Positions 14,177 to 60,167 of a stretch of 64,000 nt of DNA are shown piece by piece. This DNA is from Minisyncoccota bacterium (GTDB lineage: Bacteria; Patescibacteriota; Minisyncoccia; JBAYJV01), in the NCBI GenBank assembly GCA_041664925.1, contig JBAYJV010000001.1, positions 213,438 through 277,437 on the forward strand, in the 5' to 3' direction. Each line of letters opens with the position of its first letter. The stretch's first letter is position 1. The notes below the pieces were generated by a model. That model did no database searches. It worked only from the letters and a program-made list of their open reading frames with translations, and was not told the DNA's origin. Made by a program: the position numbers and the translations under genes.

Positions 14177-16840
14177 TCACTTAACTACAAAGTTTATTAG
14201 TTTATCCTGAACGTAGATCACTTTGACGATTTCCTTATCTCTCGTCCAGCCAATAATTTTTGAAGAAGAAAGCGCTTTTTCTTTTGCCTCTGATTCTGAA
14301 ATACCAATCGGACACTCAATCATTTCTCTGACTTTCCCATTCACCTGAACAACCAAACTAAATACGTCTTTTTTAATTAATTTTTCGTCATACTTCGGCC
14401 AAGGCTCTTCTGAAATTGACCTGAAATTAGAATTTGTTTCGGATTTCGGATTTCGGATTTCGGATTTGAGGAGTTGATATAACTCCTCTGTGATATGAGG
14501 CGCAAATGGTGAAAGGATTATTAAGAATTTTTCAAAAACTTCTTGTGCTAAATCCTTCGCTTTTTCAATTTCATTCAAAAAGATCATCATTTGAGAAACT
14601 GCCGTATTAAACTTCATCTGCTCAATGTCTTCCCCGACTTTCTTAATCGTCTGATTTAATAATCTTTCTAAATCTTTTGATTCCTGACCTTGAATCTTTG
14701 ATCCATGTTTTTCGCTTTTCGCTTTAAGCTTTACGCTTTCTCCTAAGTCCCAAACCCTACTCAAAAATCTATTCACTCCAATAACACTTTTCCCTTCCCA
14801 CGGAATTGCTTGATCAAATGGCCCCATAAACATTTCATAAAGCCTGACTGTGTCAGCTCCATATTCTTTTACGTAATCATCGGGATTAATGACATTGCCT
14901 TTTGACTTTGACATCTTAATTCCGCCCTCGCCCAAAATCATGCCATGAGCGGTTCTTTTTTTATAAGGCTCCGGTCCGCATTCTCTTGGAACTGCTCCAA
15001 TATCATAAAGAAATTTATAAATAAATCTTGAATATAATAAATGCAGTGTTGTATGCTCCATCCCGCCATTGTACCAATCAACCGGAGTCCAATATTTCAT
15101 TTGTTTCGTATTTCGTATTTCGAATTTCGAATTTTCGCTTATAGTATAAGCGATGTAGTACCAATTAGAACCCGCCCAGTTGGGCATGACATCGGTTTCT
15201 CGCCTTGCCTCGCAACCGCATTTTGGACATTTTACCTTGACCCAGTCTTTTGCCTTTGCCAATGGCGAGTCACCATCTTTCGTTGGTATAAAATCTTTAA
15301 TTTCCGGTAATTCAATCGGCAAATCTTTTTCTGGCACCGCAACCCAGCCAGGATTCAGAATTTCTCCTTCGTTGTGTTTCGTATTTCGTATTTCGTATTT
15401 CGTATTTTCCATTAATTTTTTGCACTTCGGGCAAAATATTAATGGAATCGGTTCTCCCCAATATCTTTGTCTTGAGAAAATCCAATCGCGCAAATGGTAA
15501 TTGATTGTTTTATCTCCTAATTTATTTTCCTTTAGCCAAGCGATTATTTTTTTCTGCGCTTCTTTGGTTTCAAGTCCATTCAAAAAACCAGAATTAATAT
15601 TAATGCCATCGCCCTCGTAAGCTTCGCTTTCCGCGAAGTTAGAATTTTGAATTTTGAATTTTGAATTTGTTTCGGATTTCGGATTTCGGATTTCGGATTT
15701 TAAATCATCCGTCGGCTTTACCACAATTTCGATCGGCAAATTATATCGCTTCGCGAATGCGTAATCACGAGTATCGTGTCCCGGTACTGCCATAATTGCC
15801 CCTGTTCCATAATCCATTGAAACATAATCTGCTATAAAAACAGGAATTTCTTTTTTTGTTGCTGGATTAATTGCCTTAATTCCCTTAATCTCAACTCCCG
15901 TTTTTTTCAACCCAAGGTTGACCAGCCTCGGGCTGGCTTTTTTTATATCACTAATATACTTTTCAATTTCTTCATAATTTTCGATTAACGATTCACTATT
16001 AACGATTAACGAATGATCAGGAGCAATCACCAAAAATGTCGCCCCAAAAATCGTATCTGCTCTTGTTGTGAATACCTCCAAATAGTTTTGGTCATTTGGA
16101 TTTAAATTATTAGATATTGTTTCGGATTTCTGATTTCGGATTTCGAATTTAATGCTTGCTCCTTCCGATCTACCAATCCAATTAATTTGCTGATTCTTGA
16201 TTCGATCCAAATAGTCAACATTTTTTAAATCATCGATCAGTCGATCAGCATATTTAGTAATTTTTAGAATCCATTGTTCACGTTCTTTTTTTATAACTTC
16301 GCTTCCGCATCTTTCACAAACTCCACCAACCACCTCCTCATTAGCTAAGCCAATTTTGCAGCTTGTGCACCAATTAATATTTTCTTTCGCTTTATAAGCT
16401 AAGCCATGTTTGAATAATTGGAGGAATATCCACTGGGTCCATTTATAGTATTCCGGATCGGAAGTTGAAAGCACTCGCGACCAATCAAAAGAAAATCCCA
16501 AAGATTTTAATTGCCTTGTGAAAATAGCAATATTTTCTTTGGTAATAATTTTAGGATTAACTTTTCTTTTTATGGCATAATTTTCTGTCGGTAGCCCAAA
16601 AGAATCAAAACCAATGGGATAAAGAACCGAATATCCTTCCATTCGGCGTTTTCGGCAAATAATATCCATCGCGGTATAGCTTCGTGGATGACCAGTATGA
16701 AGCCCATCTCCAGACGGATAAGGAAATTCTACTAAACCATAAAACTTCTTTTTTTCCTTATTTTCTTTAGCGTGAAAAATTCCTGTCTTTTCCCAAATAG
16801 CTTGCCACTTCTTTTCAATTTTTTCCGGATCGTAAGGCAT
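14177..16840 (-). CDS. leuS: leucine--tRNA ligase carrying five in-frame low-complexity insertions
   Basis: HTGHPRSYT (HIGH-like) and KMSKSKGN motifs; CP1 editing domain; start taken at MPYDPEKIEKKWQ. Confidence 0.9.
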   Translation of the reverse strand: MPYDPEKIEKKWQAIWEKTGIFHAKENKEKKKFYGLVEFPYPSGDGLHTGHPRSYTAMDIICRKRRMEGYSVLYPIGFDSFGLPTENYAIKRKVNPKIITKENIAIFTRQLKSLGFSFDWSRVLSTSDPEYYKWTQWIFLQLFKHGLAYKAKENINWCTSCKIGLANEEVVGGVCERCGSEVIKKEREQWILKITKYADRLIDDLKNVDYLDRIKNQQINWIGRSEGASIKFEIRNQKSETISNNLNPNDQNYLEVFTTRADTIFGATFLVIAPDHSLIVNSESLIENYEEIEKYISDIKKASPRLVNLGLKKTGVEIKGIKAINPATKKEIPVFIADYVSMDYGTGAIMAVPGHDTRDYAFAKRYNLPIEIVVKPTDDLKSEIRNPKSETNSKFKIQNSNFAESEAYEGDGININSGFLNGLETKEAQKKIIAWLKENKLGDKTINYHLRDWIFSRQRYWGEPIPLIFCPKCKKLMENTKYEIRNTKHNEGEILNPGWVAVPEKDLPIELPEIKDFIPTKDGDSPLAKAKDWVKVKCPKCGCEARRETDVMPNWAGSNWYYIAYTISENSKFEIRNTKQMKYWTPVDWYNGGMEHTTLHLLYSRFIYKFLYDIGAVPRECGPEPYKKRTAHGMILGEGGIKMSKSKGNVINPDDYVKEYGADTVRLYEMFMGPFDQAIPWEGKSVIGVNRFLSRVWDLGESVKLKAKSEKHGSKIQGQESKDLERLLNQTIKKVGEDIEQMKFNTAVSQMMIFLNEIEKAKDLAQEVFEKFLIILSPFAPHITEELYQLLKSEIRNPKSETNSNFRSISEEPWPKYDEKLIKKDVFSLVVQVNGKVREMIECPIGISESEAKEKALSSSKIIGWTRDKEIVKVIYVQDKLINFVVK
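14436..14467. repeat. heptamer microsatellite (TTTCGGA)n inside leuS, encoding SEIRNPKSETNS
   Basis: direct reading. Confidence 0.8.
15104..15137. repeat. heptamer microsatellite (TTTCGTA/TTTCGAA)n inside leuS, encoding FEIRNTK
   Basis: direct reading. Confidence 0.8.
15376..15408. repeat. heptamer microsatellite (TTTCGTA)4 inside leuS, encoding YEIRNTKHNE
   Basis: direct reading. Confidence 0.8.
15643..15703. repeat. (GAATTTT)3 + (TTTCGGA)4 inside leuS, encoding SEIRNPKSETNSKFKIQNSNF
   Basis: direct reading. Confidence 0.8.
16119..16150. repeat. heptamer microsatellite (TTTCGGA/TTTCTGA)n inside leuS, encoding FEIRNQKSETISNN
   Basis: direct reading. Confidence 0.8.
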
Positions 16841-27936: not shown

Positions 27937-29022
27937 TTAGATTAAGCTGAATAATTCTTTTTCATTAAACGATCTTGCACCTTTTCTTTTGTTATTCCTA
28001 ATTAATTTTCCTTCTTTTTCTAATGAAACAAGAACCTCCTTAAAGTCTTGTTTCCTATAACAGTGTTTTCCTGTTAATAATCTATCTAATATCTTATCCA
28101 ATGAAATATTAACTGTTCCATTAAATACTTTATACACTTCTATTTTTAAATCTTGCAAAAAAAACAAAGTATTTCTTGTTGGTTCTTTTTTAACAAACTC
28201 ATCTTTCATTTTTTCCAATCCTCTAAGATTTTTCGTAGCATATATTAAATAGTAAATGTGATTGCCTATTGAATTTTTAATGTTTTTAACAGCATAGTAT
28301 TTAAAACCAATTGAAATCAGATTTGTAAGATATATGTCTAGATATTTTTCTCTTGCAACTCTTGGAGAAATCCTATTCTTTTTTCTTTCTCGATATACAT
28401 TCTTCCAATCCTTGCAACCAAAAATTAAATCAATTTTATTTTCCATTTCCATATTGATTTCTTTCTTCTCTTCTAGTGGCATATAACGACTAATTGCCAT
28501 ACCGAAAGGAAAATTAATTAAAGCCTCTGCTTTGCTTCTCTCTCCGATCTTTCTAATTGTATCCCAATATAAATCTCCTGCTTGAGGATCTAGTAAAGCC
28601 ATAAAAGGTGTATTTTCATTAAATTGCTTTAAGATTGAATCAATTTCTTTATTGCAATCACCATTTTTTATTACAACGTTCCTTTTGGAAAAATCTCCGC
28701 TTACAATATTTTTTAAACAATCACATTTGTTTTGATCTAGTTCAATAAAAAAATATTTAGTAAATGGAGGTTCTATGCTTAATGATATTAACGTTGATCC
28801 TTTCTTGGTTTCTTTTGTCTTTTTGGTTTTACAAAGCCCAGAGCCAGCAAATGCATCAATAAAACAATATTCTTTAAAGCCTGCAAAATTTAAAATATTT
28901 GAATAAGCACCCAAATATTTTCTAATATATTCTAATTTTAACTCTGTCCATTTTCCTATATCGTTACCGAAAACCTTTTTTGCCATATTTTTATAAATTA
29001 TTATATTTTTTCTTAAATCCAT
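27937..29022 (-). CDS. SAM-methyltransferase-like protein, possibly three-Cys-motif partner (TcmP-like)
   Basis: FIDAFAGSGL motif-I-like box; adjacent to the three-Cys protein; track start at 29049 overlaps the upstream terminator. Confidence 0.4.
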   Translation of the reverse strand: MDLRKNIIIYKNMAKKVFGNDIGKWTELKLEYIRKYLGAYSNILNFAGFKEYCFIDAFAGSGLCKTKKTKETKKGSTLISLSIEPPFTKYFFIELDQNKCDCLKNIVSGDFSKRNVVIKNGDCNKEIDSILKQFNENTPFMALLDPQAGDLYWDTIRKIGERSKAEALINFPFGMAISRYMPLEEKKEINMEMENKIDLIFGCKDWKNVYRERKKNRISPRVAREKYLDIYLTNLISIGFKYYAVKNIKNSIGNHIYYLIYATKNLRGLEKMKDEFVKKEPTRNTLFFLQDLKIEVYKVFNGTVNISLDKILDRLLTGKHCYRKQDFKEVLVSLEKEGKLIRNNKRKGARSFNEKELFSLI

Positions 29023-29055
29023 TTTAACGAACAATAAATAATTATGCAAAAAAAT

Positions 29056-29084
29056 ACCTGTATTAACAGGTATTAAAAACTTCT
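29056..29084 (-). terminator. terminator AATACCTGTtaatACAGGTATTTTTTT for ORF 29106-29555
   Basis: perfect 9-bp stem + T run on the minus strand. Confidence 0.65.
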
Positions 29085-29105
29085 ATTGAACGGCCAAATA
29101 AATCT

Positions 29106-29555
29106 TTATTCTAACTTAAGGGTATTATTATCAATAATCTTTCCGTAAAAATCTAACCTTTCACCTGTTTGATCATTAATTCCTAAGCTCAAATAACTAT
29201 TGTCTTTTGCTTTAAAATCCCAAAATCTTTCGCTATCACCTTTTTTAAACATTCCTTCTCCTTGAATTTCTTCAGCGACAGCATGAGTCGAATATAGAAA
29301 TTTAAATTTTTTTCCTTCAAAATTAAGTTCTTTTGAAAACGGTTGCTGAAAAAAAGTTTTTATTTCTTTAACCAAAAGAAACATATTGCTATTCAAGTCA
29401 TCCGCAAAAACATAACCATCATTTAAACAACATTTGATATAAAAACTGCCATCGTCAAACCTGAATTTAACCACTTCTTCTACGATAAAATCTTTTCCAT
29501 CGGCTGATAATTTTATGTTCGGTTTAATTTTTGTACGAAATTCTGCAACTTCCAT
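29106..29555 (-). CDS. hypothetical 149-aa protein
   Basis: ORF track. Confidence 0.45.
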   Translation of the reverse strand: MEVAEFRTKIKPNIKLSADGKDFIVEEVVKFRFDDGSFYIKCCLNDGYVFADDLNSNMFLLVKEIKTFFQQPFSKELNFEGKKFKFLYSTHAVAEEIQGEGMFKKGDSERFWDFKAKDNSYLSLGINDQTGERLDFYGKIIDNNTLKLE

Positions 29556-29567
29556 AAATAGTTTATT

Positions 29568-29807
29568 TTATGATTTCTTTTTTAATTTCTTTATCATATC
29601 AACCAAGGCAATTAAAACACCGATGCCCATCAGTCCATATCCTACTAATCTATTTTCTCCAAAAATAATTCCTGCCAGCACAAAAGCAAAAGCTAAGCCG
29701 GCGAGAGGAGAAAGTTTGCTCCCTGATTTTTTTCCTTTCATAAAAAACATCAAGCTTGCGATAACCGCTAATACTGCTATGGCGATTATAATATAAATCT
29801 GTTTCAT
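29568..29807 (-). CDS. small two-TM membrane protein
   Basis: 79 aa, two hydrophobic helices, Lys-rich C-terminus. Confidence 0.45.
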   Translation of the reverse strand: MKQIYIIIAIAVLAVIASLMFFMKGKKSGSKLSPLAGLAFAFVLAGIIFGENRLVGYGLMGIGVLIALVDMIKKLKKKS

Positions 29808-29824
29808 GTTTATAATTTTATAAT

Positions 29825-30409
29825 TTATTTTTCCAAAATAATTTTTAATAACTCTGGAAATTCTTCAGTTCCCATATGGCTTATTACATAATGTCCGTGA
29901 TTTTTTAATTCAATAATTTTTCCTCCTAATGCTTCGTGAAAAATTTTTAAACTTTCTTTTCCGTCACTTTCTTCATCGTCAGAAGTAAACATGATTATTT
30001 CGCCAACTCTTGATTTTATACTCCCGTCAATTTGATAGTTATAAAAAGCTTCTCTCGCTTCATCGCCCAAATCATTAATTTTCCATGGGGCAACAAGGAT
30101 GAGTTTGGAAATTTTTTTCTTTGTTTCCCCAAGCCAACGAACTAAAAAAGCACAACCACAGCTGTGCCCGATTAAAATTGTGTTTTCCCCAATATCATAT
30201 TTCTCAAACTCATTTTTATATTTTGTATAATCAGGCTTCCATGGGGTTGGCATGAGGGGCGTTTCCGTTTCTATTCCTCTTTTTAACAACTCTTTTTTAA
30301 TCCATGGCATCCAGTGTTTATCATAATCCCTTGTTTCCGGACTCATCGCTTTTTCAACATTCGAAGGACAACCATGAATAATAAAAACTTTTCCTTGTGT
30401 AAGTTTCAT
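29825..30409 (-). CDS. alpha/beta hydrolase (YdeN/RBBP9-like serine hydrolase)
   Basis: GHSCG nucleophile-elbow motif. Confidence 0.6.
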   Translation of the reverse strand: MKLTQGKVFIIHGCPSNVEKAMSPETRDYDKHWMPWIKKELLKRGIETETPLMPTPWKPDYTKYKNEFEKYDIGENTILIGHSCGCAFLVRWLGETKKKISKLILVAPWKINDLGDEAREAFYNYQIDGSIKSRVGEIIMFTSDDEESDGKESLKIFHEALGGKIIELKNHGHYVISHMGTEEFPELLKIILEK

Positions 30410-33741: not shown

Positions 33742-33925
33742 TTTCACCCTCCTTTAGAGATTCTTAGCAAAGTCATGAGCTTAGAAACTCTTAAGTCCCG
33801 TACCGTGCTTGCTCTGGTACGGGACAGTTATTATCAGCACACCTCTTCGTGTACTTGGCGAAGGACTACCTCACCTTTCCTCCCAAGAACTTCTCTTATT
33901 CTATAATATATTTATTTTTTGTCAA
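33742..33925 (-). promoter_or_regulatory. promoter TTGACA-16-TAGAAT with full leader module (AGTTCTTGG, GTCCCGTACCAGAGCAAGCACGGTACGGGAC hairpin, TAAGAGTTTCTAAGCTCA..., GCTAAGAATCTCTAAAGGAGG)
   Basis: direct reading; the -35 overlaps the 3' end of udg. Confidence 0.6.
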
Positions 33926-52701: not shown

Positions 52702-52989
52702 CTAAAGATTAATCTCTGTCTTGCGACGCATCATCGTCCAGGAAATACTACACACAACATTGCCAATAAGTAGCAGAAAGACGAGATAGCCCGCCTTAGC
52801 ACCACAAACAAGTTTTTTTCGACAAATTATGATTGTCGCCACAGAAATAATACCCACCGAAAGAAGCGTTAGTGTGAGGGTTGTGTTTGATACGCTAAAA
52901 AATGATCCAATTAAAGTCGTTATACTGACATAAGTCAAAAGACAGCCCAAAACCACCCACCAATCGTATGACCTAATCCACTTTTTCAT
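52702..52989 (-). CDS. hypothetical 95-aa membrane protein
   Basis: CTCTAACGGAGGGAAAG-ATG. Confidence 0.5.
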   Translation of the reverse strand: MKKWIRSYDWWVVLGCLLTYVSITTLIGSFFSVSNTTLTLTLLSVGIISVATIIICRKKLVCGAKAGYLVFLLLIGNVVCSISWTMMRRKTEINL

Positions 52990-53146
52990 CTTTCCCTCCG
53001 TTAGAGATTCTTAACGAACTTGTGAGTTTAGAAACTCTTACGTCCCGGCTTGCCCTGCCTACCGGCAGGCAGGCGGGACAACCTTAGTTATTTTTAAAGA
53101 ACTTGCCAGTTTTAAAATCTTATCATTTTACTATTTTATAGTCAAG
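52990..53146 (-). promoter_or_regulatory. promoter TTGACT-17-TAAGAT with full leader module (AAGTTCTTT, GTCCCGCCTGCCTGCCGGTAGGCAGGGCAAGCCGGGAC hairpin, GTAAGAGTTTCTAAACTCAC, GTTAAGAATCTCTAACGGAGG)
   Basis: direct reading. Confidence 0.6.
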
Positions 53147-53193: not shown

Positions 53194-54195
53194 CTAGTAA
53201 AGATACTTTGGATCGATTTCTTGTCCTAAATGGATTGCTCGGACAACATCTGCTAGCATTTGCGCAATTGAAATGATTTTCGTATTTGGTAATCGTTTTG
53301 TTGCGGGAATTGGCAAGCTATTGGTAAAAATAAATTCAACGCTAATTCCTCTTGATCTTGCTAATCCTACGATATGGAAAAGTTTTTTATTAGCAAGTCC
53401 GCAAAGAACACCATGGGCAGAAATATAGATAAATCTTTTAAGGATTGGGTAATTTTCAATAAGATCAATTGCGATGTCTTCAAAAGTTCCACCTTCACTG
53501 ATCTCATCGTCAATACCAATGACGATTTCTTTAACTTCTCCATCAATTCCAAGAAATTTTGATTTACCATCACCCGATCTGCTTTTTTTGCCATGAATTA
53601 CTGGCAACCTCATTTCTTTGGCGAAAGTTGCTAACCGCTCTTCCCGTCCTCCGTCTGGAGTTAAAAGAGTAACATTGTCAGCCCCAATCAATCCTTCTAA
53701 CTCCTCAACGATCCGATATTTTGCCCCCAAGTGAATTACTGGTACGCCAAAATATTCTTTGACATCAAGATTATGAAGCATAATAATAACAACTTGGTCA
53801 GCGCCAGCAAGTTTTATCTCTTCGGCATAAAGCTTGGCTCCAATGGGAACACCTTTTGGTTTTTCCCGATGCGATCTGCCGTAAGAGAAATAGCCAATAA
53901 CTGCAATAACCTTTCTGGCTCCATTTTCTTTAGCAGCACGCATCAATTTCTTAAACTCAGCAAACTCTTCCTCAATCCCTCTAGTCGGTGCAAAAGTATG
54001 AAACACGAAGACAGTGCAACCATCTACATTAGAACCTTCTTCTTCTATGAGTAACTGAGGTAGCGTGTTTTCGTTTGGAAACTTAAGTATCTGATGGCGA
54101 GCGTGATCAATGCCAAGAATTTTAGCAACTTCTTCCATTAAATCTGGATGAGCACTGGTGCTTAACAGCCGAACTTTTTCTAATCCCGTTGCCAT
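53194..54195 (-). CDS. ribose-phosphate pyrophosphokinase (PRPP synthetase)-family protein, divergent
   Basis: MLHNLDVKEYFGVPV, PDGGREERLATFA and IVIGIDDEISEGGTF correspond to Prs flag/PRPP-binding motifs. Confidence 0.55.
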   Translation of the reverse strand: MATGLEKVRLLSTSAHPDLMEEVAKILGIDHARHQILKFPNENTLPQLLIEEEGSNVDGCTVFVFHTFAPTRGIEEEFAEFKKLMRAAKENGARKVIAVIGYFSYGRSHREKPKGVPIGAKLYAEEIKLAGADQVVIIMLHNLDVKEYFGVPVIHLGAKYRIVEELEGLIGADNVTLLTPDGGREERLATFAKEMRLPVIHGKKSRSGDGKSKFLGIDGEVKEIVIGIDDEISEGGTFEDIAIDLIENYPILKRFIYISAHGVLCGLANKKLFHIVGLARSRGISVEFIFTNSLPIPATKRLPNTKIISIAQMLADVVRAIHLGQEIDPKYLY

Positions 54196-54359
54196 AACAC
54201 ACCTCCGTTAGAGATTCTTAGCGAACTTTTGTGAGCCTAGAAGCTCTTACGTCCTGCCGTAGCTCCGGTTTACCGGAGCGAAGGAGGACCGCCTTTATTC
54301 TATTGTGAATGAACTTTTCCCCTTATTCTTCTTTTATCAAAGTTTTAAACGAATGTCAA
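54196..54359 (-). promoter_or_regulatory. promoter (TTGACA, weak -10) with full leader module (GGTCCTCCTTCGCTCCGGTAAACCGGAGCTACGGCAGGAC hairpin, GTAAGAGCTTCTAGGCTCAC, GCTAAGAATCTCTAACGGAGG)
   Basis: direct reading; perfect palindrome GTGTTACCaGGTAACAC at 54383-54399 just upstream. Confidence 0.55.
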
Positions 54360-54514
54360 AGAAATCGTATGTTATATTATGTAGTGTTACCAGGTAACAC
54401 TAAATAAACCCCGCACCAATTTGGTACGGGGTTCTTAATTTTGTTTCTTTTCGCTTTACTCAAAGACAAAATTAGAAAAAAGCGCCGAGTCTGACTCAGC
54501 GCCATGATTTAGAA

Positions 54515-54838
54515 CTAAGCATGCGGAAGTTGTTCTTCCCACAATTGCTTATCTTCTCCCAATAACCGATTTTTAATCGGCTTAAGTTGAATGGCAAGTT
54601 CTTCTTCACTTAATGTTCTTGGATCAACTCCTAATTGATTTGTTAATTCTTTGCGAAAACGCCTCATAACTACTTCGATTAACTTACTCTTAGGAACCTG
54701 ACATGCTTCTGAAAGCACCTCGAGAAAATCACAGACATCGGCTGTAATATTAAATTTCTATTCAATTGTTCGCTTCGAGGTACCCACGGTACAGTACCCA
54801 ATCCTTCACGAACTTTAACATCTTCTCTTTTCATCTTT
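54515..54838 (-). pseudogene. small gene apparently split by a frameshift: 51-aa ORF from ATG 54838 (leader + SD) overlaps a GTG-started 67-aa ORF (54718-54515) in another frame
   Basis: direct translation of both frames; terminator at 54478-54510. Confidence 0.35.
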
Positions 54839-54956
54839 CCTCCTATTAGATTCTCTTTGTGAGTTTACGAACATCAGAAAATCTTACATCCTGAGTTTAT
54901 CGAAGGATTATTTTTAAGAACTATTAATATCTTACTATTATTTCAATTTATGTCAA
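54839..54956 (-). promoter_or_regulatory. promoter TTGACA-16-TAAGAT with leader (AGTTCTTAAAAATAATCCTTCGATAAACTCAGGAT, GTAAGATTTTCTGA..., ACTCACAAAGAGAATCTAATAGGAGG)
   Basis: closely related to the leader at 62294-62532. Confidence 0.6.
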
Positions 54957-55010
54957 GGGTTAATGTTGTTATTAATCAAAAAGGAGACACTTTCTCTGTG
55001 TCCCCTCGTT

Positions 55011-55217
55011 TTATACAGAAATACTTTTTTTCAAAGAACGATTTTTGAAATAGGCATAGATTTTCCCTCGCCGCCTTGTATACCTCTCTGGACTCCACGT
55101 CCAAACATCATGAATGGGAATTCCTGCGATAAGAAACGAGATGCAAGGTCCAATTACAGCAAATACCGCTGCGCCAAATACGCACATTATCGCAAATTCA
55201 ACAAAACTCAATTCCAT
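55011..55217 (-). CDS. small membrane protein (68 aa)
   Basis: SD AAGGGAGG 6 nt before ATG; preferred over the overlapping + strand ORF. Confidence 0.45.
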   Translation of the reverse strand: MELSFVEFAIMCVFGAAVFAVIGPCISFLIAGIPIHDVWTWSPERYTRRRGKIYAYFKNRSLKKSISV

Positions 55218-55344
55218 TTTTCCTCCCTTTGGCTTCTAATAAAATGATATCAAAATTTGTTTTTAAATCAACTTTAATCCACTTTTAGTCATCATCCTTT
55301 TAATGGTATAATAGATCTAATGAATTAGAAAACATAAATAGTTT

Positions 55345-55725
55345 TTGGTTTTGTTGTTTGTTTTTATTGTTTCTATGAATACTGTTTCTTATGCCATAAA
55401 AGGATTGTTGCGAAGTTTTTTGGGATTTTTTGGCGATTGGTATCTCGTTTTTCCTCAAATTTATTGGAAAAAAACGCTTAAATTTACCAAAGAACTTGAT
55501 AAAAGTCTCGCCTTTAGAGAAATGGCGCGTAATTGGTTTAGTCCCCTTTATCAGGACTACAATATCGTTGGATTTTTGGTTGGTATTTGTATCAGAACTC
55601 TTTGGATTATTTTTGACTCTATTTTTTATATTTTCTTTTTCTTTTTCGCCAGCCTGATTTTTATCATCTGGCTTTTGATTTTGCCTTGCATTATTTATTT
55701 AATCTTATATAACCTCGTACCGTGA
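55345..55725 (+). CDS. hypothetical polytopic membrane protein
   Basis: stop overlaps the GTG start of the next gene (GTGA). Confidence 0.45.
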   Translation: MVLLFVFIVSMNTVSYAIKGLLRSFLGFFGDWYLVFPQIYWKKTLKFTKELDKSLAFREMARNWFSPLYQDYNIVGFLVGICIRTLWIIFDSIFYIFFFFFASLIFIIWLLILPCIIYLILYNLVP

Positions 55726-58292
55726 ATCAAGAAACAAACAATCCCAAAGAAGAACAGACAGAAAAGACTTTTGGTTATTTATATTTCAAAGACCCACTAG
55801 TTGAGCTTCCTAAAACATTTCGCTTCCCCCTTCTTTTAATATCTTTTGCTGTTTGGGGATTGATAACTTTAGTTAGTTTTCTGGGGATTCTTTTTGGTAT
55901 ATTTCGCGTACTAGAAAACGGCAATTTCGAACCAGATCCGGTATTGTCATTTTTTTGGTTTGGAATTATTTTGATGCTTTACGCAATTCATCATTTATAC
56001 AAATCTAAAAAATCTTGGAAATCTCTCTTGGATTTAGGAAAAAGAGGTGATTTGTCCAGTACAGAAATCAATATTGCTGAATATTTCAATCCCAAGAGTA
56101 AAAAAATTCTATCTCTAGCCTATAACGAATCTAGGGTTACCAATGACCCATTAGAACTGGTTCTTTTCAAGACCCTAATCTCTACTCCAGAAACAGAAGA
56201 TTTTTTGAATCATCTTGAGCTCGATTCTGAAACCATAAACAATGAATTTAGAAATAAGATTAAAACATTTAATAGGGATTATGAATTATCAAAAGAAACG
56301 CCGAGACAATCTCTCGAAGAAATAACCCAAAGGAGCTTTGTCGAAGCCTATAATACTGGGTCATCAGATATCAGATCGTATCATTTCTTGATGGCGCTTT
56401 TTTCTAAACCTCATCCTGTCCTAGAAGATCTTTTCTTAAAACATAATATTGAGCTTGAAGATGCACGAAATGTTGCCACTTGGCTGCGCATGAAGAATAA
56501 TCTTATTGTTTCTAGGCAAAGACCTCGTCGAGTCAAACATAAAGTAATGAATCGATCGTTTACGGCAAAACCGACTTATTTTCTTGATAGTTTTAGTGAT
56601 GATCTAACTGATTTGGCGCGTCATGGTGTTTTTGCTTCCCTTATTGGCCATCAAGAGGAATATAAGGAAATGATCAATATTCTAAATCAAGATGCAAGAA
56701 ATAACGCTTTAATTGTCGGAAGCGCCGGTAGTGGCAGACAAGCCATCATCAACGAATTAGCTCGAAGAATTTCAATAGACGATATTCCAAAAAACCTCTA
56801 CGACAAAAGATTGGTTTGTTTAGATGCAGGCAGTATGCTAGCGGGACTCAAAACGCCGGGAGAACTCCAAGAAAGACTTCAGAAAATTATGGATGAAATT
56901 ATCGCCTCAAAGAATATCATTCTAGGCATTCCCCAGATTCACGACTTAATCCGTGCTGTTGAAAATCAATCACTTTCCTTTATGAGCTTTTTTGGTCCCG
57001 TATTTGAATCTGTTAATTTTCCTTTAATTGCCTCAACTGATGAAACTAACTATCACCAACTTATCGAAAAGAGAAGTGACCTAGCTGGAACATTTAATAT
57101 TGTAAAAATAAAAGAGATATCAAGAGAAGATGCTTTCAAGTTTTTAATAAGAGAAGCGATTGTTTTTGAAAAACAAGGAGGAGTTGCGATTGGTCATTTT
57201 GCCATAAAGGAAGCTATTGATTTATCTGAGCGTTTCATTAAAAATCGCCTCTTGCCAAGCAAAGCTTATGATCTTTTAACTCAGGCTGTTGAAGAGGCAA
57301 AAACAAAAGGAAAGAAATTTATAACCCGAGAAGATATTGGCGTTAGTCTTTCAAAATCAACCGGGATTCCTGTTGGTCAAGCCAGTACTGGTGAAGCAAA
57401 AGAACTTTTAAACTTAGAAGAAAAACTTCATGAAAAAATGATTGATCAAGAACCTGCCGTTAAGGCGGTAAGCGAAGTCTTAAGACAAGCTAGGGCAGGG
57501 CTTGAAAGACGTACTGGCCCAATCGGCACTTTTCTTTTTGTTGGTCCAACCGGCGTCGGTAAAACCGAGCTTGCCAAGGCATTAGCTGAAACATATTTTG
57601 GCGGCGAAGAAAGAATGGTTAGATTTGATATGTCAGAATATCAATCATCCGACAGTATTTACCGATTAATTGGAACCAAAGATAGTGGAGGATTTCTGAC
57701 AGAAAAAATCAAGAATCAGCCTTTTTGCCTCTTGCTTTTAGATGAATTTGAAAAAGCTTATCATGATGTTTTAAATCTTTTCCTTCAAGTTTTTGAAGAT
57801 GGTCGTATTACCGATGAATTGGGAAATGTTGTTGATTTTACCAATACGATTATTATTGCCACTTCAAATGCCCACGCTGTTTTAATTCAAGAAAAACTCA
57901 AAGAAGGAATGGCAATTCAAGAGCTGCAAAAACTTATTAGAGAAAAACTTACCGACATTTATCGCCCAGAACTTTTAAATAGGTTTGATGAAGTTATTGT
58001 TTTTAAAACCTTAGAAGCCAAAGAATTGGAACAGATTGCTGTTCTGAAATTAAAAACTCTTTTTACTAGACTTGAAGAAGAACAAAGTGTAAAATTCTCA
58101 ATAACCCAAGAAGCGCTCAAGAAAATTTCTGAGCTTGGCTACGATCCCCAAAACGGCGCTCGCCCCATTAGACGCGCCATTTCTAAATATATAAACAATT
58201 TAATTGCCAATGCCATTTTGACTGGAGAATTGAAAAAAGGAGAAAGTTATAGTATAGATTTTATAGATAATAAATTTATCATAAAAGCGTAA
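55722..58292 (+). CDS. membrane-anchored Clp/Hsp100-like AAA+ ATPase (2 TM + Clp_N repeats + degenerate D1 + intact D2)
   Basis: D2 Walker A GPTGVGKTELAKALAE and Walker B LLLLDEFEKA; D1 P-loop reads GSAGSGRQA (no Lys). Confidence 0.65.
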   Translation: MNQETNNPKEEQTEKTFGYLYFKDPLVELPKTFRFPLLLISFAVWGLITLVSFLGILFGIFRVLENGNFEPDPVLSFFWFGIILMLYAIHHLYKSKKSWKSLLDLGKRGDLSSTEINIAEYFNPKSKKILSLAYNESRVTNDPLELVLFKTLISTPETEDFLNHLELDSETINNEFRNKIKTFNRDYELSKETPRQSLEEITQRSFVEAYNTGSSDIRSYHFLMALFSKPHPVLEDLFLKHNIELEDARNVATWLRMKNNLIVSRQRPRRVKHKVMNRSFTAKPTYFLDSFSDDLTDLARHGVFASLIGHQEEYKEMINILNQDARNNALIVGSAGSGRQAIINELARRISIDDIPKNLYDKRLVCLDAGSMLAGLKTPGELQERLQKIMDEIIASKNIILGIPQIHDLIRAVENQSLSFMSFFGPVFESVNFPLIASTDETNYHQLIEKRSDLAGTFNIVKIKEISREDAFKFLIREAIVFEKQGGVAIGHFAIKEAIDLSERFIKNRLLPSKAYDLLTQAVEEAKTKGKKFITREDIGVSLSKSTGIPVGQASTGEAKELLNLEEKLHEKMIDQEPAVKAVSEVLRQARAGLERRTGPIGTFLFVGPTGVGKTELAKALAETYFGGEERMVRFDMSEYQSSDSIYRLIGTKDSGGFLTEKIKNQPFCLLLLDEFEKAYHDVLNLFLQVFEDGRITDELGNVVDFTNTIIIATSNAHAVLIQEKLKEGMAIQELQKLIREKLTDIYRPELLNRFDEVIVFKTLEAKELEQIAVLKLKTLFTRLEEEQSVKFSITQEALKKISELGYDPQNGARPIRRAISKYINNLIANAILTGELKKGESYSIDFIDNKFIIKA

Positions 58293-58293
58293 A

Positions 58294-58680
58294 ATGCAAA
58301 GCGAAAAGCGTAAAACAACAATGCAAAATTCAAAACTAGATCTAAAGAAACGTGCTTATGTTTATGCTTTAGATATTATAAAATTTATCAATACTTTGCC
58401 CAATAATAAAACGGTTGATGTTTTAACAAAACAATTACTAAGGAGCGCAACAAGTGTTGGTGCCAATATAATTGAGGCACAAGCAGGAAGAACCCGAAAA
58501 GATTTTGTCAATTTTTTTACACATGCCTTGAAATCGGCCAATGAAAGCGTATTCTGGCTTTGTCTTTTAAAGGATAGCCACAACGCAAATTTAGATTCAA
58601 CAGAAAAGCTCATAAAAGAAACTCAAGAACTTGCAAATATCTTAGGGGCAAGTATTTTAACTCTTAAGGGCAGAAGATAG
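58294..58680 (+). CDS. four-helix-bundle protein (TIGR02436-like; start possibly at 58321)
   Basis: LLRSATSVGANIIEAQAGRTRKDFVNFFTHALKSANES pattern. Confidence 0.6.
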   Translation: MQSEKRKTTMQNSKLDLKKRAYVYALDIIKFINTLPNNKTVDVLTKQLLRSATSVGANIIEAQAGRTRKDFVNFFTHALKSANESVFWLCLLKDSHNANLDSTEKLIKETQELANILGASILTLKGRR

Positions 58681-58733: not shown

Positions 58734-60167
58734 ATGTCTAACCAAGAAATATCTAAAATTTTATATGAAATATCGGAATATTTAGAGATGGAAGATGAGC
58801 CGTTTCGTCCGATTGCCTATAACAGAGCAGCCCGCGTGATTGATTTGCAAAACCGAAGCCTTTCGGCAATTTATGATCGTGAAGGCATCAAGGGACTTGA
58901 TAGAATTCCTGGCATTGGCCAAGAAATTTCCAAGAAAATTGAGGAATTGCTTTTGACTGGTAGATTACAATATCTTGAAAAACTCAAAGCCGAATCGCCC
59001 GTTGATGTATCAACCCTCACAAAGATAGAAGGATTGGGCCCTAAAAAAATAAAGACACTTTATCGCGAATTAGATATTCGAAACCTTGATGATTTGGTAA
59101 AAGCTGTTCAATCTCACAAGATCAGAGACCTTGATGGTTTCGGTGAAAAATCAGAAGCCAATATTTTAAAAGGGATTGATGCTTTAAAAAATCAAAAAGA
59201 AAGATTGCCCCTTGAAAAGGTCCTGCCTGTCGCCCGAGACATTAAGCAAAAATTGGCATCGCTTCCAGAAGTAAAAAAAGTTGAAATCGCTGGATCGATT
59301 AGAAGGAAAAAAGAAACCGTTGGTGATATTGACGTTTTAGTAGTATCTGATGATCCGAATAAGGTTGCTGATTTTTTTGTAACCCTTCCTCAGATCGTTG
59401 ATGTATACGGTAAGGGAAAAACCAAGTCATCTGGAAGATTAGATATCGGCATTGATGTTGATTTGCGAATTGTTCCGGAAGATTCCTTTGGAGCAGCACT
59501 TCAATATTTTACTGGAAGCCAAGTCCATAATATTAAATTAAGAAGCCTTGCACGTAAAAAGGGCTATAAATTGAGTGAATACGGACTTTTTAAGGGAAAT
59601 GAAAAAATTGCCGGTAAAACCGAAGAAGAAATTTACCAAAAACTTGGTATCAGATATATCGAACCAGAAAAAAGAAAAGGAGAAAACGAAATTGTCATTA
59701 CTGATACCAATATTCACGAAAAATCAGTAGGCACAGTCATTTTTTATAAAACACAGAATAAAAAAATTGAGTACCTGTTACTTCATTATCCTAAAGGAGT
59801 AAGAACAAAATTTCATGGACATTGGGACCATGTGAAGGGCCATGTTGATGAAGGGGAAAGTGAAACAGAAACATTAATCCGAGAAATTGAAGAAGAAACT
59901 GGACTTATACACGGTGACCTTGAAATCATAGACGGATTTAGAGAGGACATCCATTACAATTTTAGAACCGAACGCGGTCTTCATTATAAAGAAGTTATTT
60001 TCTATTTGGTCCGTTCGAATACAAAAGAAGTTCATATCTCTGAAGAACATGATGATTACAAATGGCTCTTGTACGAAGATGCGCTTGAGACAATTACTTT
60101 TCAGGGAGGAAAAGATATTTTGACAAAAGCAAATGCGTTTTCTATAAAAATGTTTCATGACCAATGA
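58734..60167 (+). CDS. DNA polymerase beta-like (PolX) nucleotidyltransferase fused to a C-terminal NUDIX hydrolase domain
   Basis: HhH-rich N-terminus, GSIRRKKETVGDIDVLV PolX box; C-terminal GHVDEGESETETLIREIEEETGL Nudix box. Confidence 0.65.
   Translation: MSNQEISKILYEISEYLEMEDEPFRPIAYNRAARVIDLQNRSLSAIYDREGIKGLDRIPGIGQEISKKIEELLLTGRLQYLEKLKAESPVDVSTLTKIEGLGPKKIKTLYRELDIRNLDDLVKAVQSHKIRDLDGFGEKSEANILKGIDALKNQKERLPLEKVLPVARDIKQKLASLPEVKKVEIAGSIRRKKETVGDIDVLVVSDDPNKVADFFVTLPQIVDVYGKGKTKSSGRLDIGIDVDLRIVPEDSFGAALQYFTGSQVHNIKLRSLARKKGYKLSEYGLFKGNEKIAGKTEEEIYQKLGIRYIEPEKRKGENEIVITDTNIHEKSVGTVIFYKTQNKKIEYLLLHYPKGVRTKFHGHWDHVKGHVDEGESETETLIREIEEETGLIHGDLEIIDGFREDIHYNFRTERGLHYKEVIFYLVRSNTKEVHISEEHDDYKWLLYEDALETITFQGGKDILTKANAFSIKMFHDQ

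Follow-up and report, generated by a model that had tools for sequence, protein, structure and literature searches.

Threading driven by tyrosine loops is classically exemplified by the Hsp100 proteins. Here we describe a diverged member of this class that is encoded next to a small membrane protein in a 64,000-nucleotide (nt) stretch of DNA from a Minisyncoccota bacterium (NCBI GenBank assembly GCA_041664925.1, contig JBAYJV010000001.1, positions 213,438 to 277,437 of the forward strand), which we call the window and from whose first letter all coordinates are counted. The larger gene (55722..58292, + strand) encodes a membrane-anchored Clp/Hsp100-family ATPase of the double-ring type with 856 amino acids (aa), hereafter the Clp-like protein, and the gene directly upstream (55375..55725, + strand) encodes its small partner of 116 aa. 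We found that a membrane anchor, a dead first AAA+ module (D1), an intact second module (D2), a ClpA-like spacing of the two P-loops and the lack of a ClpP loop define a family of Patescibacteria proteins, and that the Clp-like protein of the window belongs to this family. Patescibacteria account for a large fraction of the bacteria that have not been cultivated, and to our knowledge no function has been assigned to most of their conserved membrane proteins.

With ClpC (of B. subtilis, or MecB-ClpC of S. aureus) and ClpB, the Clp-like protein shares the order Clp_N, D1, D2 and D2-small, and its D2 Walker A and B, sensor-1, arginine finger and sensor-2 are the same in kind. Compared with both, it adds a membrane hairpin and an obligatory small membrane-protein neighbour and lacks the M-domain; its D1 is without the catalytic Lys/Thr, DE and RR residues, and the KYR and GYVG tyrosines are both missing. 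The VGF ClpP loop of ClpC is absent as well. ClpA, with a P-loop spacing of 281 residues and no M-domain, resembles the Clp-like protein in this respect, but differs in its own IGL/IGF ClpP-docking loop, its active pore loops and the lack of a membrane anchor. ClpI of Actinomycetota (PMC10149685) was considered as a comparable system and rejected, as its modules are intact.

Other AAA+ machines offer partial parallels. The Torsin ATPases of the eukaryotic endoplasmic reticulum (ER), which act with the cofactors LAP1 and LULL1 (see the review PMC5425593), have in common with the Clp-like protein a Clp-D2-like AAA+ module at a membrane, no aromatic pore-loop residues and a dedicated membrane-protein neighbour or cofactor. 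Torsins differ in having a single AAA+ module, in residing in the ER lumen and in receiving the arginine finger from the cofactor, whereas the Clp-like protein has its own D2 arginine finger (R754), a dead D1 and a Clp_N domain. In contrast to the Torsin cofactors, the partner, at about 116 aa, is helical and has no AAA-like fold, and the resemblance is best taken as a functional analogy only. NSF and PEX1/PEX6 each combine a working ring with a non-catalytic scaffold ring (D2 in NSF, D1 in PEX1/PEX6), as we propose for the Clp-like protein; in these proteins the active ring retains aromatic pore loops, and none of them is integral to the membrane. In FtsH, Msp1/ATAD1 and Bcs1 (see also PMC12793716), an N-terminal transmembrane (TM) anchor sets the entry face of the ring at the bilayer, as may also be the case here; they have a single ring with essential aromatic pore loops (except Bcs1), and FtsH has a protease domain. 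Unlike the Clp-like protein, these membrane-anchored machines are neither Hsp100-derived nor paired with this small partner.

Architecture and motif states of the Clp-like protein

The original prediction for this locus, which was made from the DNA letters alone, described an 856-aa Clp/Hsp100 open reading frame (ORF) with a GTG start on the upstream stop, two N-terminal TM helices, Clp_N repeats, a D1 P-loop without Lys or Thr, a degenerate D1 Walker B and a canonical D2. Each of these points is borne out by the analyses of this section. In the ORF list and the sequence (...ccGTGAatc...), the GTG start at 55722-55724 overlaps the TGA stop of the partner gene at 55723-55725. In the N-terminal membrane hairpin (55827..55997, + strand), a short acidic loop connects TM1 (residues 36-62) to TM2 (residues 74-92), and a Lys-rich segment comes after TM2. 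A Kyte-Doolittle scan places the hydrophobic segments at residues 32-66 and 71-92, and an AlphaFold2 (AF2) model, built with 83 family sequences as input (mean predicted local distance difference test, pLDDT, 85.9; predicted template modelling score 0.77), has long helices at residues 31-66 and 73-95. The ORF list shows no alternative start codon downstream of the hairpin. Judged by the charge distribution alone, namely the acidic loop and the lysines after TM2, both ends of the hairpin would lie in the cytoplasm (N-in/C-in).

The remainder of the protein is organised as in double-ring Hsp100 proteins. Pfam recognises AAA_lid_9 (residues 469-531, E 5e-8), AAA_2 (600-758, E 1e-46) and ClpB_D2-small (764-843, PF10431, E 3e-20), but finds neither Clp_N nor a D1 AAA match at E<0.01. 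A profile-profile comparison with hhalign, however, matches family residues 122-256 to ClpB N-domains over 135 columns with a probability of 97.8% (E 1e-12), and we therefore regard the Clp_N double-repeat domain (residues 122-256; 56085..56489, + strand) as real but divergent. The best Foldseek matches of the AF2 model are ClpC and ClpB cores (target-normalised template modelling score 0.83, root-mean-square deviation of about 4 A, about 580 columns), and the best sequence match in the PDB is B. subtilis ClpC (3j3t, E 3e-119). The NCBIfam Clp equivalogs all score far under their cut-offs (ClpB TIGR03346, 498.6 against 1232.1 bits; ClpA TIGR02639, 451.7 against 993.15). With two tandem AAA+ modules, a ClpB_D2-small domain and a Clp_N domain, the Clp-like protein is a member of double-ring Hsp100 class I.

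We read the motif states of the Clp-like protein from an alignment to B. subtilis ClpC. In this alignment, D1 (residues 285-535; 56574..57326, + strand) is a non-catalytic AAA+ module. Its P-loop reads GSAGSGRQA (G333-SAGSG-R339-Q340-A341; nt 56718-56744) against GEPGVGKTA in ClpC, its Walker B reads ILGIPQ against ILFIDE, with PQ in place of DE at nt 56931-56936, and its arginine-finger region reads DLAGTFN against ALERRFQ, with GT in place of RR. Of the elements of catalytic competence, namely a Walker A GK[TS], a Walker B DE and the RR pair of arginine fingers, D1 has none. In its pore loop, KTPGE stands in place of KYRGE, which puts a threonine at the tyrosine position.

D2 (residues 560-760; 57399..58001, + strand), as delimited by Pfam, alignment and invariant columns, retains the complete set of catalytic residues, with a canonical Walker A (GPTGVGKTE), Walker B (LLLLDEFEKA), sensor-1 (TSN) and arginine finger (LNRFD). 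Its pore loop is altered: the sequence IGTK------DSGGFLTE (residues 651-658, nt 57672-57695) aligns to VGSPPGYVGYDEGGQLTE in ClpC, and the six-residue deletion removes GYVG. A phenylalanine, F658, directly precedes LTE and is conserved in the protein's own clade. The module is followed by the ClpB_D2-small C-terminal domain (residues 764-845; 58011..58256, + strand; Pfam PF10431, E 3e-20) with the sensor-2 motif GAR.

Two elements that connect canonical Clp proteins to other machines are absent. The P-loops of the Clp-like protein lie 274-275 residues apart, compared with 281 in ClpA-like proteins, 337 in ClpC and 401-407 in ClpB, and this short, ClpA-like spacing indicates that there is no M-domain; the AF2 model likewise contains no coiled-coil insertion in the D1 small subdomain. 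The distance from the D2 sensor-1 to the arginine finger is 36 residues, against 37 in ClpB and 43-44 in ClpC, and KEGM, a four-residue turn in the AF2 model, stands at the site of the ClpC YVGF. Accordingly, the check for a ClpP-binding loop that accompanied the original prediction turned out negative, with no [LIV]-G-[FL] docking loop in the protein. The shortened D2 loop, the loss of the D1 arginine fingers, the lack of an M-domain and of a ClpP loop, and the fact that these traits are family-wide had been missed earlier.

A Patescibacteria family with a small membrane-protein partner

About 100 full-length relatives, 812-963 aa long and 32-92% identical to the Clp-like protein, were retrieved by a homology search; those with names come from Paceibacterota, Jorgensen-, Wolfe-, Lipton- and Nomurabacteria or are labelled 'Patescibacteria group'. 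Databases give family members generic labels, either ClpC or AAA family ATPase. A scan of genome contigs with the family profile mostly caught canonical ClpC, ClpB and ClpA through generic motifs, so that about 10 of 80 loci were family, and the non-family loci served as a canonical control set. From the homology search and the genome scan we assembled a motif census of 114 family members and 87 canonical ClpA/B/C-type proteins.

The census separates the two groups. An N-terminal hydrophobic or TM anchor is present in 109 of the 113 family members with a complete N-terminus and in 2 of 82 canonical proteins. The D1 Walker B DE occurs in 6/114 family members, the others having mostly PD, PQ or PN, against 87/87 canonical proteins, while the D1 arginine-finger pair RR is found in none of the 114 and in all 87. 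The D1 Walker A lysine is present in about 80 members and is replaced by arginine in about 25, among them the clade of the window protein. The D1 pore tyrosine or phenylalanine is missing throughout the family (0/114; canonical 84/87), and in most members this D1 loop is acidic or small. The D2 pore loop has mostly 7-9 residues in the family and 13 in 87/87 canonical proteins; 84/117 members are without an aromatic residue in this loop or beside it, 14/117 have one inside it, and 18/117, including the window protein with F658, have one only at the residue before LTE.

In contrast to these losses, the D2 Walker A and B, sensor-1, arginine finger (R754) and sensor-2 (G812, R814) are invariant in the family. 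Averaged over pairs of sequences, identity in the D2 large subdomain is 0.62 among family members and 0.63 among canonical proteins; for the D1 large subdomain the averages are 0.42 and 0.66. This indicates that D2 is fully constrained and that D1 is relaxed but still folded. As these features recur in more than 100 homologues and are absent from the 87 canonical Clp proteins, chance is excluded.

The phylogeny that the original prediction had called for placed the family in a separate clade, monophyletic in 100/100 neighbour-joining bootstraps, whose closest canonical sequences are ClpC of Bacillales. Canonical ClpC with every motif intact also occurs in Patescibacteria records (L037, L040 and L050; L and P numbers are our own for loci and proteins), and the family is thus a paralogue and does not replace ClpC. 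It spans at least three major classes of Patescibacteria, with intact ORFs in more than 100 lineages. Full-text literature searches found no description of the Clp-like family or of its small partner.

A subset of the family may preserve an earlier state. Fourteen members, mostly longer ones, carry a DnaJ-type zinc ribbon (CxxCxGxG twice) ahead of the membrane anchor (L091 5341-8118, L093 5452-8241, L010, P0023, P0034, P0038, P0045, P0055, P0090, P0094-96, P0099 and P0101). Several of them have a PGY-type D2 loop with the pore tyrosine and retain the first Asp of the D1 Walker B, and several adjoin mraY; the clade of the window protein has neither the zinc ribbon nor the D2 pore tyrosine. Because several zinc-ribbon members still have the PGY-type loop and the D1 Asp, the sequences suggest that the ancestor was a membrane-anchored, D2-driven unfoldase whose gripping elements were lost stepwise in the Paceibacteria and Saccharimonadia branches.

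The most consistent companion of the family is the small partner. The longest ORF at this position runs from a TTG (55345..55725, 126 aa), but the ATG at 55375 is the better start, because its 116-aa product is identical to a deposited protein (P0121, 'hypothetical protein [Candidatus Paceibacterota bacterium]') and fits the alignment of homologues. The N-terminal part of the partner is helical and basic, and a single hydrophobic stretch of about 40 aa lies C-terminal to it. The gene had been described as a polytopic membrane ORF; it does encode a membrane protein, but with a single hydrophobic stretch the polytopic part of that description is not established. The family alignment contains the motifs WY (WWY) and F-x-P-[LM]-Y (LFxPMYG), with W22, Y23, F55, P57 and R74 invariant. 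The AF2 model of the partner (pLDDT 93.1) is a helical hairpin with helices at residues 2-45, 47-52 and 64-114; a fold search of the PDB gave nothing significant (best E 7), and Pfam, NCBIfam and PADLOC gave no match.

With a hidden Markov model of the partner, a match immediately upstream of the Clp-like gene was obtained in 21/22 family loci, against 0/68 canonical Clp loci, and in the 22nd family locus the end of the contig cuts off the upstream side. The coupling of the ATPase to a small membrane protein, as originally proposed, is thus a property of the family. Conversely, when the search was begun from matches to the small protein, the next gene downstream was again Clp-like, with 802-929 aa. 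Where coordinates are available, the two genes overlap or are at most 33 nt apart, and at the equivalent position of a 67%-identical locus (L002) the partner is 54% identical to that of the window. A partner profile search yielded 239 clusters, all 'hypothetical' and without a Pfam domain, of which the named ones belong to Paceibacterota, Saccharimonadales, Uhrbacteria and Magasanikbacteria. An exhaustive search yielded 1660 representatives at 50% identity, nearly all of them standalone proteins of 105-160 aa. One candidate fusion (P0318, 414 aa) was rejected as a read-through or mis-called ORF into unannotated sequence, with no domain fusion. We suggest that the partner may be a tail-anchored membrane protein that serves as adaptor or regulator of the Clp-like ATPase.

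Four records titled 'uncultured Gammaproteobacteria' (L010, L014, L028 and L076) also carry the module of small and Clp-like genes, with the partner detected in three. Their gene context is Patescibacteria-like (mraZ-rsmH...mraY, TGT), and mis-binning or mislabelling is the probable explanation.

Data from Southlakia epibionticum bear on the importance of the pair. In its transposon-sequencing tables, SEML1_0701 (hypothetical, 384 bp) overlaps SEML1_0700 ('AAA family ATPase', 2583 bp) (PMC10633639, Tables S1/S2). The domains of SEML1_0700 are D1 at about 258-421, D2 at 544-706 and D2-small at 713-792, with no Pfam Clp_N, and the two genes lie on the same strand, with MurT/GatD adjoining and a MurB entry a few genes away (PMC10633639, Table S2). 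Both genes are called NE, NE and GD over three passages, and the normalised reads of the two genes fall, from 4124 to 2517 to 1638 and from 258 to 157 to 51 (PMC10633639). The canonical ClpC of this organism is a separate, non-essential gene, SEML1_0512, with Clp_N twice and a UVR motif (PMC10633639). SEML1_0701/0700 are probably the orthologues of the partner and the Clp-like protein, dispensable and with a growth defect at the last passage.

Gene neighbourhoods and other elements of the window

The small-Clp pair is the sole invariant link; the genes around it differ from lineage to lineage and carry little weight as evidence. In Paceibacteria, that is, in the window and its relatives, the order is a UDG or PHP-domain (TIGR00375/MJ0043_C) gene, the small gene, the Clp-like gene, PolX, NUDIX and Ogt, after which the L20-L35-IF3 genes follow on the opposite strand. 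The order of these genes for base-excision and direct DNA repair is conserved in the window and in L002, L004, L007 and L009, and in L007 the start of PolX overlaps the stop of the Clp-like gene. In eight other loci, whose Clp-like proteins are only 33-53% identical to each other, the order is small, Clp-like and mraY, with a short ORF or spacer intervening in a few. Four of these eight also have mraZ, rsmH and/or an ftsL-like gene upstream, and in two of the four the series mraZ, rsmH, ftsL-like, small, Clp-like and mraY is uninterrupted. Flanked in this way, the pair lies within the division/cell-wall (dcw) cluster in some lineages. Two genes upstream of the pair, Saccharimonadales have a LytR_cpsA_psr gene, and in Saccharibacteria LytR, or MurT/GatD and MurB, are close to it.

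Ahead of the two-gene module in the window, a candidate extended -10 element (TGgTATAAT, 55304..55312, + strand) is suggested by its match to the consensus alone, with no good -35, and a scan of the window for terminator-like sites found none on the + strand between 55345 and 60600. Within the 64-kb window, tblastn detected neither a further Clp ATPase nor ClpP nor the TIGR00375 PHP protein. In one Paceibacteria relative, a ClpP gene (L007 3949-4536) lies two genes upstream of the module; at least some carriers thus have ClpP, although the Clp-like protein is without a docking loop.

Directly downstream, 2 nt past the stop of the Clp-like gene and ahead of PolX, the window contains a gene for a 128-aa four-helix-bundle/23S rRNA-IVP protein (58294-58680, + strand; PF05635, TIGR02436). 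As the syntenic loci L002, L004 and L007 are without it, this gene looks like a recent insertion into the operon. It was considered as a marker of a diversity-generating retroelement (Avd), and no long repeat pair was found around it. The following gene (58734-60167, + strand) encodes a PolX core (residues 1-321) fused to NUDIX (residues 332-455), without a PHP domain. This fusion is common to the window and L002, whereas in L004 and L007 PolX has the PHP domain and NUDIX is a separate gene downstream.

Upstream of the module, the region 54196-55340 (about 1.15 kb) has no long ORF, only a few short minus-strand ORFs and three minus-strand terminator-like hairpins. L002 and L006 encode a PHP-domain TIGR00375/MJ0043_C protein of 424-433 aa at this position, and tblastn detected no remnant of that gene in the region. 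The window has three copies of a conserved element of about 54 nt, CCCTCCGTTAGAGATTCTTA...CTCTTACGTCC (33747-33800, 52994-53047 and about 54200-54256). Two copies lie directly 5' of minus-strand starts, those of prs (53194-54195) and of an ORF at 52702-52989. The element contains a GGAGG ribosome-binding site and may act as a common 5' leader or regulatory element; a search of Rfam at gathering thresholds gave no match. Elsewhere, a 46-nt unit with tandem heptamers (TTTCGGA/TTTCGTA x4) at its end is present five times at 14422-16150, with 270-670 nt between copies, and the GC content is 0.279 at 28001-30000 compared with about 0.35 in the rest of the window.

Function of the pair

We tentatively favour, with a probability of roughly 0.45, a reading of the Clp-like protein as a partner-dependent, D2-driven remodeller or switch, at most an extractor of weak grip and low processivity, that would act on membrane-proximal clients, possibly in envelope biogenesis or division. 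Under this hypothesis, the locus would encode a conserved two-protein membrane machine specific to Patescibacteria, with the Hsp100 paralogue as its large subunit. Assembly into a ring oligomer seems likely, since the trans-acting D2 arginine finger and sensor-2 are invariant. The hairpin N-terminal to Clp_N would anchor the ATPase at the cytoplasmic face of the membrane, and consequently the entry face formed by the N-domain and D1 should point at the bilayer. D1 may be a non-hydrolysing nucleotide-binding or structural scaffold ring, given that its P-loop glycines are invariant while its catalytic residues are lost, which would leave D2 as the only motor. Docking to ClpP should be impossible without the [LIV]-G-[FL] loop, and the lack of an M-domain would mean no control by DnaK. 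Membrane-proximal clients would be recruited or regulated via the small tail-anchored partner, and the zinc ribbon of 14 members is a hint that the clients are proteins. Cell-envelope biogenesis or division would be the likeliest process.

We prefer remodelling or switching over processive threading because the aromatic residues with which pore loops grip are missing. A genuine threading unfoldase, extracting or disaggregating membrane proteins in the manner of FtsH, Msp1 or ClpB, would have to work with D2 alone and through non-canonical contacts (F658 in the clade of the window protein, aliphatic residues elsewhere), with the small protein as adaptor. This is the main rival, though a less likely reading: the N-terminal anchor puts the substrate-entry face at the membrane, the D2 motor is fully conserved, Clp_N is retained, 18 members including the window protein have an aromatic just before LTE, and the zinc-ribbon members, several with the PGY-type loop, suggest that the ancestor threaded its substrates. 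Against it, 84/117 members have no aromatic anywhere in the D2-loop region, this loop is short and variable, unlike a constrained gripping element, the D1 pore loop is mostly acidic or small, and both the ClpP loop and the M-domain are absent. The 'membrane-protein disaggregase or unfoldase' of the original prediction presumes such a threading motor and fits poorly with the lost pore tyrosines and the missing M-domain and ClpP loop, while its other suggestion, an adaptor-dependent machine, agrees with the invariant pairing. The DNA-repair genes next to the module raise a different explanation, in which the pair remodels or tethers repair complexes or incoming DNA at the membrane. That gene order is conserved in the window, L002, L004, L007 and L009, PolX overlaps the Clp-like stop in L007, and no + strand terminator separates the module from PolX and Ogt in the window, but the association is restricted to one class, other classes have the pair in the dcw cluster or beside LytR, the pore loops are acidic or neutral rather than basic, and Pfam finds no nucleic-acid-binding domain; we consider a repair role very improbable. 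Least credible, and largely refuted, is a housekeeping ClpC/ClpB orthologue with a mis-called start, or a decaying, pseudogene-like copy. The best PDB sequence match is indeed B. subtilis ClpC, but the TM hairpin is present in 109/113 N-complete members with no later start, NCBIfam equivalog scores are far under their cut-offs, canonical ClpC exists alongside the monophyletic clade, D2 is as constrained as in canonical Clp proteins, and ORFs are intact in more than 100 lineages.

Three further roles were considered for the pair. An anti-phage defence system was rejected, as PADLOC gave only generic matches to the D2 region (DolB, PDC-M37B) and none for the small protein. We judged a channel or translocon unlikely, the conserved residues of the hydrophobic segments being Trp, Pro, Leu and Gly, none of them polar or charged, and likewise a DNA translocase, with pore loops that are acidic or neutral.

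Several points weigh against the remodeller or switch that we favour. The argument against threading draws solely on missing canonical pore residues, and aliphatic or backbone contacts can move unfolded chains; in the clade of the window protein, F658 could replace the gripping residue on the shortened loop. An entry face turned toward the membrane and a DnaJ-like zinc ribbon would suit an extractase equally well. The gene context varies by lineage, and since DNA-repair genes, not division genes, flank the module in the window and its relatives, the envelope link is weak for this organism. For S. epibionticum, the orthology of SEML1_0700/0701 rests on length, domain coordinates and gene order, without sequence, and insertions in SEML1_0701 could be polar on SEML1_0700. 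A bolder version of the same idea, in which the pair would be a phylum-wide bacterial counterpart of the Torsin/cofactor principle, its Hsp100-derived ring no longer threading polypeptides and, together with the small membrane subunit, using D2 hydrolysis as a switch for the assembly, activation or disassembly of divisome or lipid-linked peptidoglycan-precursor complexes (for example around MraY, FtsL or MurT/GatD), is speculative and rather improbable.

Taken together, the family keeps a constrained D2 and has lost D1 catalysis, both gripping loops, the M-domain and the ClpP loop, and thereby offers a natural test of a Clp ring without threading, in which members with the PGY-type loop and the zinc ribbon exist beside fully stripped forms. 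The probable orthologues SEML1_0700/0701 bring this test into the genetically tractable S. epibionticum, where insertions are viable and fitness is lost. Our results connect an unannotated small-protein family (about 1,660 representatives at 50% identity) with a defined ATPase and point to envelope and division loci. If true, the Torsin-like reading would add a previously unrecognised component to the cell-envelope biogenesis of Patescibacteria.

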